Source: Nitrospirota bacterium
GTDB lineage: Bacteria > Nitrospirota > Thermodesulfovibrionia > UBA6902
Assembly (NCBI GenBank): GCA_016214845.1
Contig: JACRMS010000032.1
Span: 18,655-82,654 of the forward strand
DNA length: 64,000 bases
Direction of reading: 5' to 3'
Shown in pieces: positions 4,627-44,296 of the stretch. Position 1 is the stretch's first letter; each line of letters starts with the position of its first letter. The notes beneath the pieces are model-generated. The model was given only the letters and a program-made list of their open reading frames with translations. It had not been told where the DNA came from and searched no databases. The translations under genes were made by a program, and so were the position numbers.

Positions 4627-5073
4627 ATGAGGAAAGGAAAAAATAAAAGTTCCATAGGGCAGGTAAAATCCCTGATGAAAAGCAGGGAGCTTACCGAAGG
4701 GCTGTCAAAGATGATCGAGAAGCAGAGGGGAGATCTGGGGTTTCTCCTGAGCGCCTTGAAAATGCGTCCCCGCACTTTTAATCCTTATGTCCTCAAAGGG
4801 ATGTCCATCTACAGCGAGCCGTCTGCCCTGGACAGGAAAACGGTTGAACTGGTTGCAGTCGGCGCTGCCGCCGCTCTCAGATGCGAGCATTGCCTTACCG
4901 CGCACATAAACAGGGCCCTTGACGAGGGCGCAACCAATGATGAAGTTTTGGATGCGGTCCTTATTTCCGGCGCAATTTCCGAATCATCAACTCTTTCCGT
5001 GGCCCTCAGGAAGTTCAAACAGCAGGCGGGGAAGACAACTAAAATAACGGGCCGGGGAAAGAGGGTTAAATAG
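4627..5073 (+). CDS. Carboxymuconolactone decarboxylase / AhpD-like family protein
   Basis: CxxC-containing AhpD-like core (AALRCEHCLTAH). The ATG at 4627 has GGAG 9 nt upstream; the ORF-track start at 4591 is a TTG. Confidence 0.6.
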   Translation: MRKGKNKSSIGQVKSLMKSRELTEGLSKMIEKQRGDLGFLLSALKMRPRTFNPYVLKGMSIYSEPSALDRKTVELVAVGAAAALRCEHCLTAHINRALDEGATNDEVLDAVLISGAISESSTLSVALRKFKQQAGKTTKITGRGKRVK

Positions 5074-6333: not shown

Positions 6334-6747
6334 ATGTTCCCTGTAAGCCCGGAAAAAGAAAAGTCTCTCAAGGCCAAACTCGACAACCTTGGCATTCATG
6401 AAAAGGACATCGAGGAATCGTTCATCCGCTCAGGCGGGCACGGCGGGCAGAATGTCAACAAGGTCGCAACCTGTGTTTATCTAAAACACATCCCAACCGG
6501 TGTTGAGGTCAAATGCCAGAAGGCGCGCACTCAGGGAATGAACCGATATTATGCCCGTGTGCTGCTTTTTGAAAAAGTAGAACGCCTGATAAAAGGCAAG
6601 GAGAGCGAGGAAGAACAACGGATCGAAAAGATCAGGCGGCAGAAACGCAAACGCTCAAAGCGCGCAAAGGAAAAGATGCTTGAAGGGAAACACCTGCAAT
6701 CCATAAAAAAAGAAAAACGTTCTTATCACCCTTCCCGTGAAGAGTAA
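6334..6747 (+). CDS. arfB: Alternative ribosome-rescue factor ArfB (peptidyl-tRNA hydrolase, RF-1 GGQ domain)
   Basis: 137 aa, [15 protein letters not shown] motif, Lys/Arg-rich C-terminal tail. Confidence 0.8.
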
Positions 6748-6762
6748 AATTAAGGCCTGAAT

Positions 6763-7782
6763 TCACTTCGATGTTTCTTCGTAGAACTCCCTTTTCGGCT
6801 GGCCACTCATCAGCCCGAATCTTTTGTAAAGTGATTGCGCGAAAAGAAAGTCCAGGTGTGCGATTGAATCAGGGCGATTGCCAAAGACCTTTTCCCAGAC
6901 ATCCCACCGTTCCATGCAAAGATATACAAGATTGTCTTGTGAAATTTTCCCCCTCAGCGCGCTGTAAATGTGCTTGTACATCTTTACCCGCAGCGGTTTT
7001 ACATACCGCATCTTTGCGTCATCACCCAGTACCATCTCCGCGCAGGTCAGGCGGTTGTCCGGGTAGTTGTTTTCCATCTTCTTTTTCATCTCAGGGTTGA
7101 AGCGGAGGCTGCCGATGGATATCCACGCGACCCTCTCAGGCGATACCGAATCAAAGACCCGGTCCACAAGCCCCGAATATCCTTCTTCCCATCCCTTGTG
7201 AAAGATCATCGGGTCGAAATGCAGGCCGATCAAATAGCCTGCCTTTGAAACCTTGCGCATGGCGTGAAGCCGGTCTTCAAGAGACGCGGTCCTGTGCTCT
7301 TCTGTGTTGATGACGTGATCAGTATTCAGGGACCACGAGACAACCGTCCTTTCATTGTGAGAGATATTTAGTATCGAATCAACGTTGTCTGACTTCGTCT
7401 TTAGTTCAAGAACGGCATTTCCCATTGTGGAAAATTCGCGGATAAGTCTTGCGGCCTGTCCCGTCTCTCCTTCCAGCGCAAGACTGTCGCCAAGCTCCCA
7501 AGTGCCGATGCGGAACAGCCTCTGCGGCTCATTTGCGGTTTTGCTTTTAACCTCTTCCATCAACGCGTCAATATCGTCCACGATCTTTGTCGCGCCGTCG
7601 TTCATATAGTTTTGAAGGAAGCAGTATGAACATTCAAACGGGCAGTTGTGGACGGACTTCAATACATGCACATAACAGCAGAGGTATTTTCTGTTGAACG
7701 TAGCGCACGTGCCCATTGCCTCGCCGTGTTTCGGAATGGGCTTAACTTCCTTTTTCCCGTCTTTATAGTTCAAGGTATTCAT
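6763..7782 (-). CDS. Radical SAM protein of the spore-photoproduct-lyase (SplB) / DNA-repair photolyase-like family
   Basis: 339 aa, CxxxCxxC radical SAM cluster motif (CPFECSYC), SplB-like length and composition. Confidence 0.65.
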   Translation of the reverse strand: MNTLNYKDGKKEVKPIPKHGEAMGTCATFNRKYLCCYVHVLKSVHNCPFECSYCFLQNYMNDGATKIVDDIDALMEEVKSKTANEPQRLFRIGTWELGDSLALEGETGQAARLIREFSTMGNAVLELKTKSDNVDSILNISHNERTVVSWSLNTDHVINTEEHRTASLEDRLHAMRKVSKAGYLIGLHFDPMIFHKGWEEGYSGLVDRVFDSVSPERVAWISIGSLRFNPEMKKKMENNYPDNRLTCAEMVLGDDAKMRYVKPLRVKMYKHIYSALRGKISQDNLVYLCMERWDVWEKVFGNRPDSIAHLDFLFAQSLYKRFGLMSGQPKREFYEETSK

Positions 7783-39631: not shown

Positions 39632-41072
39632 TATGCGAATGCTTTTTGCTGCCGCGTTTGCCATCTTTCTCACCGGCTGCATGGCCGGGCCGGATTATGT
39701 GCGGCCTAAGGTTGATGTGCCTGCCGCTTTTATTTACGAAGAGAAAGAAGTCCGTGACACCGCGAACACCGGGTGGTGGAAACAGTTCCAGGACCCGGCG
39801 CTTGACGCCCTGATCACCGAGGCGCTTGCCAACAACAGGAATATCAGGATCGCTGCCGCAAATGTAGAACAGGCCGCCGCCGTGCTGATGCAGGTACGGT
39901 CGCCGCTCTTCCCGCAGATCGGATACAGCGGCAGCGGTGCGAGACAGCGCGCAAGCGAGTCCGGGGCCGAACTTCTTTTTTCAATAGTGCCAAACCCGCA
40001 GTCTACATATCAGGCGCTTGCAAGCGCGAGCTGGGAGATAGACCTGTGGGGCCGCATCCGGCGGCTCTCCGAGGCTGCGCAGGCGGACCTGTTTGCAACA
40101 GAGGAAGCGCGGCGGGGGGTAATCCTTTCCCTCGTTTCATCAGTGGCAGGCAACTATGTCCAACTCCTCGGCCTCGATGAGCAGCTCGTAATTTCAAAAC
40201 GCACGCTCGAAACATATGCCGAATCGGTCAAAATTTTTGAACTGCGTTTCAAGTACGGCCAGGTGTCACAGATGAACGTTGAGCAGGCGCGCACCCAATA
40301 CGAAACTGCCGCATCCGCAATCCCGCAGATAGAATCGCAGATCGCCCAGACCGAGAACGCTCTCTCGGTCCTGACCGGGCGCAATCCGGGGCATATCACT
40401 CGCGGAAAGACGATCAATGAGCTTATGCTGCCCGCTGTTCCCGCGGGACTTCCAGCGGATGTTCTCATGAACCGTCCCGACATTCGCCAGGCCGAACAGA
40501 ATCTTATCTCGGCCAACGCGCAGATCGGCGCGGCCAGGGCGCTCTACTTTCCTTCAATTTCCCTTACCGGGGCCTATGGGTTTGAAAGCCCGGATCTGTC
40601 CGATCTTTTTAAGGGCCCTGCGCGGGTCTGGAGTTATGCCGGGTCTTTCACAGGGCCAATATTTACAGGAGGCGCTATCTACGGACAGGTAAAGCAGGCC
40701 GAGGCAATACAGAAGGCCGCGCTCCTCAACTACGAATTAACTGTCCAGAATTCTTTCGCGGACGTCGAGAACGCGTTGGTTGCCCGCAAGAAACTTGTCG
40801 AGCAGGTCCAGGCGCAGGAGCGCCTCATCAGAGCGAGCGGCGAGTATGTCCGCCTCGCACAGCTTCAGTACGACGGCGGGTACGCGCCCTATTCGACAGT
40901 GCTCCAGGCCGAGCAGCAGCTTTTTCCCGCCGAACTCAACTACGCACAGTACCGCGTCGCGTTGTTCACCTCACTTGTAAACATTTACAAGGCCATGGGC
41001 GGCGGCTGGGTAGCCGTGGCAGACCGGATGACTACGGCAATAAGTCAAGACGCAGCAAACAGAGGACAATAA
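39624..41072 (+). CDS. RND efflux outer-membrane factor lipoprotein (NodT/OprM family)
   Basis: Lipobox LTGC. The ATG at 39624 overlaps the permease stop and has GAGGAG upstream. Confidence 0.8.
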   Translation: MIDMRMLFAAAFAIFLTGCMAGPDYVRPKVDVPAAFIYEEKEVRDTANTGWWKQFQDPALDALITEALANNRNIRIAAANVEQAAAVLMQVRSPLFPQIGYSGSGARQRASESGAELLFSIVPNPQSTYQALASASWEIDLWGRIRRLSEAAQADLFATEEARRGVILSLVSSVAGNYVQLLGLDEQLVISKRTLETYAESVKIFELRFKYGQVSQMNVEQARTQYETAASAIPQIESQIAQTENALSVLTGRNPGHITRGKTINELMLPAVPAGLPADVLMNRPDIRQAEQNLISANAQIGAARALYFPSISLTGAYGFESPDLSDLFKGPARVWSYAGSFTGPIFTGGAIYGQVKQAEAIQKAALLNYELTVQNSFADVENALVARKKLVEQVQAQERLIRASGEYVRLAQLQYDGGYAPYSTVLQAEQQLFPAELNYAQYRVALFTSLVNIYKAMGGGWVAVADRMTTAISQDAANRGQ

Positions 41073-41096
41073 TTCTCCCCGCAGATTACAGACCGT

Positions 41097-41118
41097 CAGG
41101 CATTTTAGAAAATGCCTG
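41097..41118 (+). terminator. Hairpin terminator candidate after the RND efflux operon
   Basis: Perfect CAGGCATTT-tag-AAATGCCTG (9-bp stem); the downstream T content is modest. Confidence 0.35.
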
Positions 41119-41125
41119 ATCTGTC

Positions 41126-41198
41126 ATTCTGAATTCATTTCAGAATCTCATACTTTCAGAATGTAAAAAATGCTGAGATCCTGAAACAAGTTCAGGAT
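41126..41198. repeat. Upstream pair of CTGAA/TTCAG hairpin repeats (H1 ATTCTGAATTCATTTCAGAAT at 41126-46; H2 ATCCTGAAACAAGTTCAGGAT at 41178-98)
   Basis: Each has an 8-bp stem and a 5-nt loop. The pair is mirrored in inverted orientation downstream of the aminopeptidase gene. Confidence 0.7.
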
Positions 41199-41260
41199 GA
41201 CAATTGTCGTTTAGGCTGCTTTGCTGCAGCTTCTTTATTTATTCATGTATAATTTAATTC

Positions 41261-42364
41261 ATGAAAGATCAGATCGGTAATGCCATAGACAACATATTTA
41301 AAATTAACCTCGGAGTGAAGAAGACGGAAAGGGTCATTGTCTTCACAGACGGATATAACAGCAAGCTGAGAAAGATCACAAAGCGTATTGCGGAGGCAGG
41401 GATAAACTTTACTCCGCACATCTGCTGCATCGAATACCAGCCAACAGGCAGTCATGGGGTTGAGCCGCCGGAGGGGATGTGGAGAGAGGCATTCGGAGAG
41501 AATGTTCATAAGGAAATAAAACGCAGAAAACTTTTCAAACCCCTTCTCGCCAAAAAAACTTCGGAGGCTCAGAACAGGGAGATCGAAAAAATTATAAAGG
41601 CGCACAGGGAAGAAGCCGTTGACGCGGTGATCGCGCTTTCATATTATTCAACAAGCCACACGAAATTCAGGGACATGTTAAACCGCATCTGCGGGACGAG
41701 ATACGCGAGTATGCCGCTCTTTGACGAGGAAATGCTTGAAGGAGCGATGAGGGTAAATTACAAGACGATGCTTGAGCGGACAACAAAGATCGCCGTAGCA
41801 GTGAACAAGAGCGAAGAGATAGAGATCAAAACCCCGAACGGGACTTTTATCACGCTTTCAAAAAAAGGCCGTGAGGCGAAAGCAGACACAGGCATTATCA
41901 AAAAGTCCGGGACATTCAGCAACCTCCCGGCAGGAGAGGTCTACCTCGCCCCGCTTGAAGGCACTGCAAACGGCAGACTCGTGCTTGACTGGGCTCCGAC
42001 AAGAAAATTGAAAAGTCCGATGACCCTTCTTGTTGAAAAAGGCATGGCGACAAAGGTTGAGGGCAAAGAGAAGTACGTAGAATATTTACGGTCAAAGCTT
42101 TCCGAAAAAAAGGAGAACGCAAATATAGCGGAACTCGGAATAGGCACGAACGACAAGGCCTCACGGCCTGACAACATTCTTGAGTCGGAAAAGATCTTCG
42201 GCACGATCCATATCGCCCTTGGAGACAACAGCACCTTCGGCGGAAAAGTCAGGGCGTCATTTCACCAGGACTTTGTTTTTTTCAAACCCACAGTGACATT
42301 GGTTTATAAAAACGGAAGGAAAAAGGTTCTTCTGAAAGCCGGAAAGATTTCCAACAAGCTGTAA
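41261..42364 (+). CDS. Aminopeptidase, peptidase family M29 (AmpS/aminopeptidase T-like)
   Basis: 367 aa; GEVYLAP, ELGIGTN and HIALGDN motifs typical of M29. Confidence 0.65.
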   Translation: MKDQIGNAIDNIFKINLGVKKTERVIVFTDGYNSKLRKITKRIAEAGINFTPHICCIEYQPTGSHGVEPPEGMWREAFGENVHKEIKRRKLFKPLLAKKTSEAQNREIEKIIKAHREEAVDAVIALSYYSTSHTKFRDMLNRICGTRYASMPLFDEEMLEGAMRVNYKTMLERTTKIAVAVNKSEEIEIKTPNGTFITLSKKGREAKADTGIIKKSGTFSNLPAGEVYLAPLEGTANGRLVLDWAPTRKLKSPMTLLVEKGMATKVEGKEKYVEYLRSKLSEKKENANIAELGIGTNDKASRPDNILESEKIFGTIHIALGDNSTFGGKVRASFHQDFVFFKPTVTLVYKNGRKKVLLKAGKISNKL

Positions 42365-42370
42365 AATGTC

Positions 42371-42438
42371 ATGCTGAACTTGTTTCAGCATCCGCCGTAA
42401 TCTATAGCAGCATAAAGACCCTGAAATGAATTCAGGGT
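42371..42438. repeat. Downstream pair of hairpin repeats in inverted orientation (H2' ATGCTGAACTTGTTTCAGCAT at 42371-91; H1' ACCCTGAAATGAATTCAGGGT at 42418-38)
   Basis: The loops CTTGT and ATGAA are reverse complements of the upstream loops ACAAG and TTCAT. Hairpin spacing is ~30 nt in both pairs (26 nt downstream, 31 nt upstream), giving a similarly spaced nested H1-H2-gene-H2'-H1' arrangement. Confidence 0.7.
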
Positions 42439-42476
42439 GACAAAATTACACCTTCATGAAGAGGGGAATTCCGAGT

Positions 42477-43769
42477 TTACTTGAACACCCTCTTGAATAT
42501 ATAATTCACGTTCTTCAGGTAATAGGACAGATCAAAGAGCTTTTCTATTTCTTTTGAGGAGAGATAATTTTTTATCTCTTTGTCTTCTTTTAAAAACTCC
42601 TTAAACTCCCTTTTGCCGCTCCAGCTTTCCATGGCGTTTCTCTGCACAAACTGATAGGCGTCCTCCCGGCTCATTCCTTTTTCAATCAGGGCAAGCAGGA
42701 CTCGCTGCGAATTGTAAAGCCCGAAGCTTTTATTGATGTTCTCAAGCATCCTCTCCGGGTAAACGTTGAGCCCTTTGAGGATATTAGTCAGCCTCACAAG
42801 CATGTAGTCAATGAGTATGGTGCTGTCCGGTATGATTATCCTTTCAACGGAAGAATGGCTGATGTCCCTCTCGTGCCACAGCGCGATATTTTCCATTGCC
42901 GCCATCGCGTTTGAACGCACAACGCGCGCAAGCCCGCTCAGGTTTTCGCATCCGATAGGGTTCCGTTTGTGCGGCATCGCGGAAGAGCCTTTCTGGCCCT
43001 TCTCAAACGGCTCCTCGGCCTCAAGCACCTCTGTCCGCTGGAGATGCCTGATCTCAACGGCGATCTTTTCAATTGTCCCTGCCACGAGCGCAAGGGCGTT
43101 CATGAATTCAGCATGACGGTCTCTCTGGACTATCTGGGTTGAAACCGGAGCGGGCTGCAGACCGAGTTCCTTGCAAACATGCTGCTCAATGAACGGAGGG
43201 ATGTTTGAAAAGGTCCCGACCGGGCCTGAAAGCTTTCCGTAGCTTATGGTTTCCTTAGCGCACTGCAGGCGGAAGAGGTTGCGCTTCATCTCTTCATACC
43301 ACAGGGCAAACACAAGTCCGAAAGTTGTAGGCTCCGCGTGAATGCCATGGCTCCTTCCCATACGAAGTGTGTTTTTATATTTGACGGCGTTTGCTTTCAG
43401 CACCTTCAAAAGTTCTTTGACATCGCTGATGATAATGTCCGAGGCCTCTCTCATCTGAAGCGCGAGTGCGGTATCGAGAACGTCTGAAGATGTAAGTCCC
43501 TTGTGGATGAAGCGTGAATCCGGGCCGACATTTTCGGCAACAGATGTAAGGAATGCAATGACGTCATGCTTGACGGTCTTTTCAATTTTATCGATACGCT
43601 TGATGTTGAACGCCGCCTTTTTCCTTATCACGGCAAGGCTCTTCTTCGGGACCGCTCCAAGCTTTGCCCATGCCCCGCAGGCCGCGATCTCAACATCGAG
43701 CCACTTCTGATATTTATTCTCCGGCTCCCATATTTTTGCCATCTCAGGCCTTGTGTAACGTGGTATCAT
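42477..43769 (-). CDS. purB: Adenylosuccinate lyase
   Basis: 430 aa; fumarate-lyase signature region GSSAMPHKRNP. Confidence 0.9.
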   Translation of the reverse strand: MIPRYTRPEMAKIWEPENKYQKWLDVEIAACGAWAKLGAVPKKSLAVIRKKAAFNIKRIDKIEKTVKHDVIAFLTSVAENVGPDSRFIHKGLTSSDVLDTALALQMREASDIIISDVKELLKVLKANAVKYKNTLRMGRSHGIHAEPTTFGLVFALWYEEMKRNLFRLQCAKETISYGKLSGPVGTFSNIPPFIEQHVCKELGLQPAPVSTQIVQRDRHAEFMNALALVAGTIEKIAVEIRHLQRTEVLEAEEPFEKGQKGSSAMPHKRNPIGCENLSGLARVVRSNAMAAMENIALWHERDISHSSVERIIIPDSTILIDYMLVRLTNILKGLNVYPERMLENINKSFGLYNSQRVLLALIEKGMSREDAYQFVQRNAMESWSGKREFKEFLKEDKEIKNYLSSKEIEKLFDLSYYLKNVNYIFKRVFK

Positions 43770-44226: not shown

Positions 44227-44296
44227 AAGGCAGTGACGCGTGACAAGTAGGGGCGGGTTTTAAACCCGCCCCTACAGGAGATTTGCTTATAAATTT

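Follow-up and report, generated by a model that had tools for sequence, protein, structure and literature searches.

The stretch analysed here (the window) comprises 64,000 nucleotides of contig JACRMS010000032.1 from an uncultured Nitrospirota bacterium, and our subject is a set of four short hairpins that bracket a gene for a 367-residue NicX/peptidase-M29-like protein (the M29-like gene). Upstream of this gene is an efflux operon of the resistance-nodulation-division type, the last gene of which encodes an outer-membrane factor, and downstream are purB, nusB, ribH and ribBA, which converge on it. The hairpins, designated H1, H2, H2' and H1' from left to right, all have perfect 8-bp stems and 5-nt loops and share the core CTGAA-N5-TTCAG:

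41126-41146, unit on the plus strand: hairpin H1, ATTCTGAA-TTCAT-TTCAGAAT
41154-41162, plus strand: TTTCAGAAT, in the spacer between H1 and H2, repeating in direct orientation the 9 nt at 41138-41146 (right arm of H1)
41178-41198, unit on the minus strand: hairpin H2, ATCCTGAA-ACAAG-TTCAGGAT, given with its forward-strand loop
41261-42364, plus strand: the M29-like gene, outside the repeats themselves
42371-42391, unit on the plus strand: hairpin H2', ATGCTGAA-CTTGT-TTCAGCAT
42418-42438, unit on the minus strand: hairpin H1', ACCCTGAA-ATGAA-TTCAGGGT, given with its forward-strand loop

The core is found exactly four times in the window, each time at this gene, where 0.06 matches are expected from shuffled sequence (none of 100 shuffles reached four), and permitting one mismatch adds just three more matches, all of them unrelated. 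The four hairpins also form a separate group among the window's perfect hairpins with stems of at least 8 bp. The stems of H1 and H2 are 31 nt apart (41147-41177) and those of H2' and H1' 26 nt apart (42392-42417), and the H2' stem begins 6 nt past the TAA stop codon of the M29-like gene (42362-42364). Across the gene, the inverted arms extend for 29 nt at 90% complementarity and for 27 nt at 85%. An extra copy of TTCAGAAT is present between H1 and H2 (41155-41162), and the TTTCAGAAT copy probably derives from a partial duplication or is left over from a unit that has decayed. A sequence-only reading of this DNA had already reported the nested arrangement of the hairpins, their stem core and loops, the placement of H2' after the stop codon, the 31- and 26-nt spacings and the extra copy, all of which we found again in the sequence.

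What that reading did not mention is that each hairpin is directional: a conserved, unpaired TGTC precedes the stem on the 5' side, and a short tail whose first base is C follows on the 3' side. Most of the tagged hairpins known as repetitive extragenic palindromes (REPs) belong to either a GTAG-tagged or a CGTC-tagged superfamily (Di Nocera, De Gregorio and Rocco 2013, BMC Genomics 14:522; PMC3733652), and in these terms the locus consists of four units arranged as two dimers:

41122-41149, plus strand: REP unit H1, TGTC-ATTCTGAA-TTCAT-TTCAGAAT-CTC; tag 41122-41125, stem 41126-41133/41139-41146, tail 41147-41149
41175-41202, minus strand: REP unit H2, in minus-strand reading TGTC-ATCCTGAA-CTTGT-TTCAGGAT-CTC; the tag is GACA at 41199-41202
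42367-42394, plus strand: REP unit H2', TGTC-ATGCTGAA-CTTGT-TTCAGCAT-CCG; tag 42367-42370, 2 nt past the stop codon
42415-42442, minus strand: REP unit H1', in minus-strand reading TGTC-ACCCTGAA-TTCAT-TTCAGGGT-CTT; the tag is GACA at 42439-42442, 34 nt past the purB stop codon
41122-41202: REP dimer 1, the tags-outward heterodimer H1(+)/H2(-) of a TTCAT-loop and a CTTGT-loop unit with a 31-nt gap, 50 nt past the stop codon of the outer-membrane efflux gene
42367-42442: REP dimer 2, the tags-outward heterodimer H2'(+)/H1'(-), in the orientation opposite to dimer 1 and between the convergent ends of the M29-like gene and purB

Dimer 1 therefore sits between unidirectional genes and dimer 2 between convergent ones, 2 nt and 34 nt from their stop codons. 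The spacers of the two dimers are unrelated to each other: the spacer ends of dimer 1 are complementary (ATCTCA...TGAGAT), such that the whole dimer can fold as one long hairpin, and a single strand of dimer 2 folds as two separate hairpins. Within the units, the innermost variable stem pair differs in a compensatory manner (T-A, C-G, G-C and C-G in the order of the locus), the second stem pair of H1' is C-G and not T-A, and the four tails read CTC, CTC, CCG and CTT. Once two heterodimers are given, a mirrored rather than a parallel arrangement is a one-in-two outcome, and thus the nested symmetry that first drew attention to the locus adds no information.

The architecture of the window units is that of a published family. 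CGTC REPs carry an unpaired CGTC tag at one end of the hairpin, with TGTC as a frequent variant and CCTC also seen; their 8- or 9-bp stems start with A-T, their loops have 4 or 5 nt, and most of their 3-nt tails fit CCA (Di Nocera et al., 2013; PMC3733652). They are mostly inverted dimers with 20-100-bp spacers, located between unidirectional or convergent genes near 3' ends, present in tens to thousands of units per host and associated with no dedicated tyrosine transposase; the family CGTC-2 is defined by 8-bp stems and 5-nt loops, and heterodimers predominate in it (PMC3733652). At the M29-like gene, all four units have TGTC directly 5' of the stem in their own orientation, the stems are perfect 8-bp duplexes of the form A-Y-N-CTGAA, the loops have 5 nt, and the dimers are inverted heterodimers near 3' gene ends with gaps in the described range. 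An intragenic CGTC-2 unit in Sulfurovum is reported to encode the peptide RHSELVSGS (PMC3733652), which can be back-translated to CGTCATTCTGAACTTGTTTCAGGATC, that is, to a CTGAA-CTTGT-TTCAG sequence. One difference lies in the host, an uncultured, Thermodesulfovibrionia-like member of the Nitrospirota, a phylum not named in the text of the 2013 paper. The four hairpins are thus very probably two dimers of a known CGTC-tagged REP, family CGTC-2 in its TGTC variant, which would have landed independently and are predicted to be recognised as single strands. With the window units, an uncultured Nitrospirota contributes new copies to a repeat family known since 2013; a protein partner of its superfamily was reported in 2025.

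The same unit is widely dispersed. A scan with the pattern TGTCAY-N-CTGAA-N5-TTCAG-N'-RTC over genomes, one per species, matched at least 120 loci, where we roughly estimate that chance would give a few tens of matches over the whole collection. The matches listed comprise 142 units, the set to which the following counts refer, and span Nitrospirota, Alpha-, Gamma- and other Proteobacteria, Bacteroidota, Spirochaetes, Ignavibacteria, Elusimicrobia and Melainabacteria, together with several candidate-phyla-radiation groups, Rickettsia and a Nanoarchaeota bin. Stem positions left free in the search are Watson-Crick paired in 136 of the 142 units (N-N') and in 140 of the 142 (Y-R); the C-G pair at the second stem position of H1' belongs to this family-wide covariation. 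Because these positions vary and yet remain complementary, it is the folded single strand that is conserved. Conservation is confined to about 28 nt, with nothing beyond it conserved. The commonest loops are CTTGT (50 units), CTTGA (25), TTTAT (19) and CTCGT (12), and the second base of the tail is T in 77% of units, the leading C having been fixed by the search pattern. All but 14 units (128/142) lie outside any open reading frame (ORF) of at least 150 residues, and the closest gene on the side of the tag is in most cases directed at the unit and terminates near the tag, at a first-quartile distance of 20 nt. Clustering of the 856 ORFs of at least 100 residues within 2.5 kb of the units gave no recurrent neighbour protein family, which argues that there is no linked transposase; small GIY-YIG genes were missed at this length threshold and were later found with a motif regular expression.

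The TTCAT-loop variant, absent from the genome set, was used for a second scan of metagenomes and again matched at least 120 loci. Among the metagenome matches listed are 49 tags-outward dimers, 24 of which pair TTCAT with CTTGT; this is the heterodimer of the window and the commonest partnership of TTCAT units. Over the listed matches of CTGAA-type units the tags are TGTC and CGTC, and CTC is the commonest tail, with CCA in fourth place. A second REP site was seen in 40 of the 240 loci listed from both scans, and the metagenome-and-genome set includes genes bracketed by two dimers (L199 and L215) and two dimers about 3.8 kb apart (L117). In two metagenome contigs we also observed tandem arrays of four same-strand TTCAT-loop units with a period of about 140-220 nt (L135, 5013-5535; L179, 5879-6397), unlike the usual inverted dimers. 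A BLAST search of plasmids located a unit within a gene for a 4Fe-4S protein of Sulfurovum; on plasmids of Sphingobium, Novosphingobium and Sphingomonas, three genera named as CGTC-2 hosts (PMC3733652), it located dimers with CGTC tags facing outward. The matches in the plasmid collection came from sphingomonad, Treponema and Sulfurovum records only, the annotated plasmid regions with a unit contained no feature naming the repeat, and the phage collection gave essentially no match. A 26-nt hairpin is thus found nearly identical, with compensatory stem changes, in Nitrospirota, Proteobacteria, Bacteroidota, Spirochaetes, candidate-phyla-radiation bacteria and others. The sequence-only reading had itself named abundant dispersal of the same hairpins after many genes as an outcome that would speak against a paired arrangement around a cassette, and at pan-genomic scale this is what both scans returned.

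Comparison with relatives separates the repeats from the gene. The M29-like family is large in Nitrospirota (4926 proteins at E<=1e-10), and its nearest member, 90% identical at the amino acid level, is encoded in L006 (GCA_016213945.1). There the gene and purB are convergent and overlap at their stop codons; the 112-nt spacer that houses dimer 2 in the window does not exist, and the upstream intergenic region has no hairpin. Further orthologous loci (L007, L008, L009 and L252-L255), whose neighbour genes differ, likewise have no CGTC-type REP beside the gene. The overlap of gene and purB without a spacer in L006, together with the seven repeat-free orthologous loci, indicates that the repeats are lineage-specific insertions. 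Judged from these comparisons, the hairpins are neither a conserved regulatory feature of the M29-like gene nor a package that brought the gene in.

A possible protein partner is suggested by the work of Chenal et al. (2025, Nat Commun 16:2388; PMC11893778), in which the Neisseria repeat dRS3, a CGTC-1 member extended to NTS (CGTCATTCCCGCGMAVGCGGGAATCYRG), is bound and cut by SsnA (NMV_0044 in N. meningitidis). This 94-residue GIY-YIG nuclease acts on single-stranded DNA only; it cleaves one of the two strands at a site located a few bases before the tag, and depends most on the bases that precede the palindrome and on the C that follows it. The Ssn system modulates transformation, and the Neisseria enzyme does not bind RNA. 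The related motifs termed SRMs, whose partner genes encode small single-domain GIY-YIG proteins (cd10448), cluster around genes, and homologues of ssnA in different phyla typically carry their own motif on either side; binding and cleavage have been published for the Neisseria and Wolbachia motifs only (PMC11893778). The window units resemble NTS and SRMs in the order of (C/T)GTCAT, hairpin and conserved C and in the clustering of repeats around genes; they differ in an A+T-rich CTGAA stem where NTS has TCCCGCG.

An association of CTGAA-type units with such genes was found when the collected loci were searched for GIY-YIG ORFs with the motif regular expression. In four metagenome loci (L185, L193, L235 and L241) an ORF of 95-112 residues has CTGAA-type units on both sides, no more than tens of nucleotides away, the same bracketed layout as SRM-ssn-SRM with a different hairpin. 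A Pfam scan placed all three of the GIY-YIG proteins submitted (L193, L185 and L241) in PF01541 (E 1e-15 to 5e-18), and a PDB sequence search with one bracketed protein returned distant UPF0213 structures only. The GIY-YIG stop codon marks the beginning of the unit in L193 (gene at 4707-5015) and in L235; in L241 the last residues of the protein and its stop codon are encoded by the hairpin itself (…VDPEMNSG*). By analogy with the Neisseria system, we infer that an Ssn-type nuclease is the likely partner of CTGAA-type units. A more specific proposal is that CTGAA-type hairpins are the cognate single-stranded targets of a distinct, uncharacterised Ssn-type clade present in many phyla and missed by the SRM pattern, with the dimers in the window marking the M29-like gene as cut sites and altering its exchange; we put this forward tentatively, and regard it as rather less probable than its being wrong. 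The sequences TGTCATCCTGAACTTGTTTCAGGATCTC, TGTCATCCTGAATTCATTTCAGGATCTT and TGTCATGCTGAACTTGTTTCAGCATC are named as candidate single-strand Ssn substrates. If the proposal were true, exchange of the M29-like gene by transformation or recombination would be handled unlike that of its neighbours, as has been proposed for Neisseria NTS clusters. Since the A+T-rich variant escapes the SRM pattern and yet brackets small GIY-YIG genes, the catalogue of Ssn nucleases and targets may exceed the published one, and such pairs are of interest as a source of single-stranded-DNA tools.

Other Nitrospirota loci also contain CGTC-type REPs (L008, L014, L018 and L036), with NTS-like CGTC-1 units and mixed CGTC-1/CGTC-2 clusters in L008 and L014. 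In L008 (Nitrospirota GCA_020723105.1, 127-193), TGTCATTCCCGCGAAGGCGGGAATCCA forms a dimer with CGTCATTCTCCGGCTTAACCGGAGAATCCA (9-bp stem, 5-nt loop), and TGTCATTCCCGCGAAGGCGGGAATCCA is the Neisseria NTS core with the sole difference of a TGTC tag for CGTC; a dimer of two types indicates that several CGTC families coexist in Nitrospirota. L014, from a Nitrospirae metagenome-assembled genome (JACROO010000045.1), has three tagged REPs in series at 462-555, where two CGTC-1-like units, the second of them inverted, enclose a CGTC-2 unit of the CTGAA type. At 6400-7130 of the same locus an ORF of about 96 residues of the GIY-YIG type has as its flanking hairpins another kind, TATAGATTC-N3-5-GAATCTATA, and GTAG-headed ones that lie within longer stems.

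Several observations weigh against the assignment to CGTC-2 REPs with single-strand recognition. The window tails (CTC, CTC, CCG and CTT) depart from the quoted CCA, H1' has C-G where T-A is expected at position 2, and the choice of CGTC-2 over other CGTC families was made from a verbal description and one back-translated example. There are just four units in 64 kb, all at one gene, so that the dispersal documented here is one across genomes; a rough estimate, taking the window to have about 50 intergenic spaces, puts the chance that two randomly placed dimers fall in adjacent ones at roughly 4%. A regular expression built from the published SRM pattern, HGTCWYN(0-2)YYVSBRHN(0-5)WNVSBRGN(0-2)RNCYNB (PMC11893778), has no match on either strand of the window and does match the NTS control; the CTGAA stem fails the V-S positions of the pattern, so that by the operational definition the window units are not SRMs. 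Two weak tests, a tblastn search and a motif regular expression, found no GIY-YIG gene in the window, and for CTGAA-type units the link to Ssn enzymes is one of analogy and association.

The first alternative to weigh, suggested by the sequence-only reading for the 1.3-kb segment, is a mobile or invertible cassette whose inverted ends are formed by the hairpins. A site-specific recombinase or transposase using H2/H2' or H1/H1' as its sites would then mobilise or invert the gene. The nested, mirror-symmetric layout with its long inverted arms is what such an element would show, and inverted repeats on both sides of a segment are shared with miniature inverted-repeat elements and invertible segments; the G+C content of the M29-like gene is also somewhat below that of the upstream operon. 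The window arms differ from those elements in being generic 28-nt units, with no recombinase and no target-site duplications. No recombinase or transposase is encoded between about 25.8 and 46.1 kb of the window (about 15 kb upstream and 4 kb downstream), in agreement with the earlier remark that none is adjacent. The spacers of the two dimers are unrelated, identical units and the same heterodimer stand beside unrelated genes in many phyla, the mirrored order has a 50% prior given two heterodimers, and the adjacency of gene and purB is kept without hairpins in L006, the family being resident at seven loci with no adjoining REP.

Metagenome assemblies bear on the same question. The window is identical to four Logan contigs from four runs (SRR12113395, SRR12113396, SRR12113397 and SRR12113407), and three contigs end at H2 or H2': L002 ends at 42392, L003 at 42393, and L004 spans 41176-42390, exactly from H2 to H2', as a cassette might. 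H2 and H2' have no 31-mer in common, so that the breaks are not due to this pair alone; a repeated 26-30-mer in a k=31 graph accounts for them, and the most economical interpretation is that the graph branches where additional copies of the 26-30-nt unit exist in the same communities. L003 runs 1 nt beyond the unit and has T where the window has C, and CT- is the commonest family tail among the matches listed. Inversion would yield a junction of the upstream flank, CTGAAACAAGTTCAG and the reverse complement of the gene's 3' end; Logan look-ups of purB and the efflux gene for alternative junctions returned the same contigs only, and nothing in the assemblies requires an inversion polymorphism. 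With the same hairpins dispersed near unrelated genes and the gene resident without them in relatives, the suggestion of a mobile or invertible cassette does not hold; we consider it highly improbable, and the repeats do not make the M29-like gene a cassette.

Four near-identical palindromes, two upstream of the start codon and two downstream, with a core that resembles a pair of half-sites, could instead be double-stranded operators for a dimeric transcription factor, possibly looping the upstream and downstream sites together. This too has very little chance of being correct: orthologous loci have no hairpins, the sequence stands beside unrelated genes across phyla and preferentially past stop codons, the compensatory stem variation points to selection on a folded single strand and not on base-specific duplex contacts, and the asymmetric tag gives the unit a direction that a symmetric operator would not have. 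ArgR, Cra/LacI-type and ArsR-type boxes, LexA variants and CsrA sites were considered and set aside, because a 5-nt spacer is odd, the stems covary and gene specificity is lacking. A role mainly in RNA, as 3' stem-loops that end or stabilise the efflux, M29-like and purB transcripts and insulate the neighbours, is compatible with REP identity and has more in its favour. A stop codon precedes the tag of three of the four units at a short distance (2, 34 and 50 nt), in the family as a whole the end of the upstream gene is usually near the tag, H1' on the minus strand has a T-rich tail and passes a terminator scan, and many REPs have been argued to be transcribed and to act post-transcriptionally (PMC3733652). 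As the main function of the hairpins it is nevertheless unlikely. The stems are A+T-rich and H1, H2 and H2' have no following T-run, so that the G+C-rich stem and T-run of an intrinsic terminator are not found and H1' passes only a loose scan; separate terminator-like hairpins are already present at 41096-41119 and 41213-41232; termination requires no conserved tag, loop or stem sequence; and the Neisseria Ssn enzyme does not bind RNA (PMC11893778). The alternative offered by the sequence-only reading, paired protein-binding or terminator sites insulating the gene, therefore survives in spirit, the superfamily including a published target of a single-strand nuclease (PMC11893778) and H1' resembling a loose terminator, but not as something specific to this gene.

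Other repeats and RNAs were considered. GTAG-type REPs, REPINs and BIMEs are mobilised by RAYT (Y1) transposases. Like the window units they are short tagged hairpins, intergenic and after genes, with a presumed single-strand mechanism, and their inverted doublets can fold into one long hairpin, as dimer 1 can; the window tag is TGTC, not GTAG or GTGG, and no Y1 transposase was seen near the units. tRNA-like, ribozyme, attC and IS200/IS605-end readings were rejected for want of a matching feature. An Rfam 15 search of 40.9-42.7 kb returned only matches to eukaryotic microRNA precursors, which we ascribe to the generic long hairpin shape; none reached a gathering threshold, and a curated RNA family was set aside. 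A literature text search for the hairpin letters, as DNA and as RNA, found no match, and a search for peptide translations of such repeats returned irrelevant papers only.

On the CGTC-2 assignment, the history of the locus can be pictured as follows. The two dimers would have inserted, each on its own, into the intergenic spaces that flank a resident housekeeping-type gene, and their opposite orientation, arising by happenstance, would have produced the nested mirror pattern. By analogy with Neisseria NTS/dRS3 and with Wolbachia repeats belonging to this superfamily, the folded single-stranded units would most likely be recognised by a small Ssn-type GIY-YIG nuclease encoded elsewhere in the genome. 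Cleavage by this enzyme a few bases before the tag would in turn affect recombination of incoming or exposed single strands. Where transcribed, the units just past stop codons would probably also serve as 3' RNA hairpins that stabilise or end transcripts. For the window itself the consequence is small, as the gene is no cassette and the symmetry is trivially explained. The CTGAA-type hairpin is a useful flag in annotation, since it breaks assemblies and spawns spurious small ORFs.

Some further features lie close to the repeats and the gene. At 41096-41119, 24 nt past the efflux gene stop codon and 2 nt before dimer 1, is a hairpin with a 10-bp stem, TCAGGCATTT-TAGA-AAATGCCTGA. Its 5' edge (CGTCA...) was caught by a relaxed REP scan; the stem absorbs the would-be tag and leaves none free, and we rejected it as a REP unit. 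It lacks a T-run and represents either a common 3' hairpin or a repeat unit that has decayed. Another hairpin (41213-41232), between dimer 1 and the gene start, resembles a terminator and has a tail rich in T. Farther downstream, between the start of nusB and the stop codon of ribH (both on the minus strand), a perfect palindrome with a 13-bp stem, GTAGGGGCGGGTT-TTA-AACCCGCCCCTAC (44247-44275), has a GTAG head as in GTAG-type REPs; the window contains it once, and Logan contig L001 terminates within it. The G+C content is about 0.40-0.49 over 41000-42800, which covers the M29-like gene and its flanks, versus 0.53-0.60 in the upstream efflux operon. The genes adjoining the orthologues vary between genomes, which places the M29-like gene in a rearrangement-prone neighbourhood. 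Finally, a perfect TATAAT (41249-41254) stands just 6 nt before the ATG at 41261, a start that agrees with that of the 90%-identical orthologue, and the mRNA of the M29-like gene may be leaderless.

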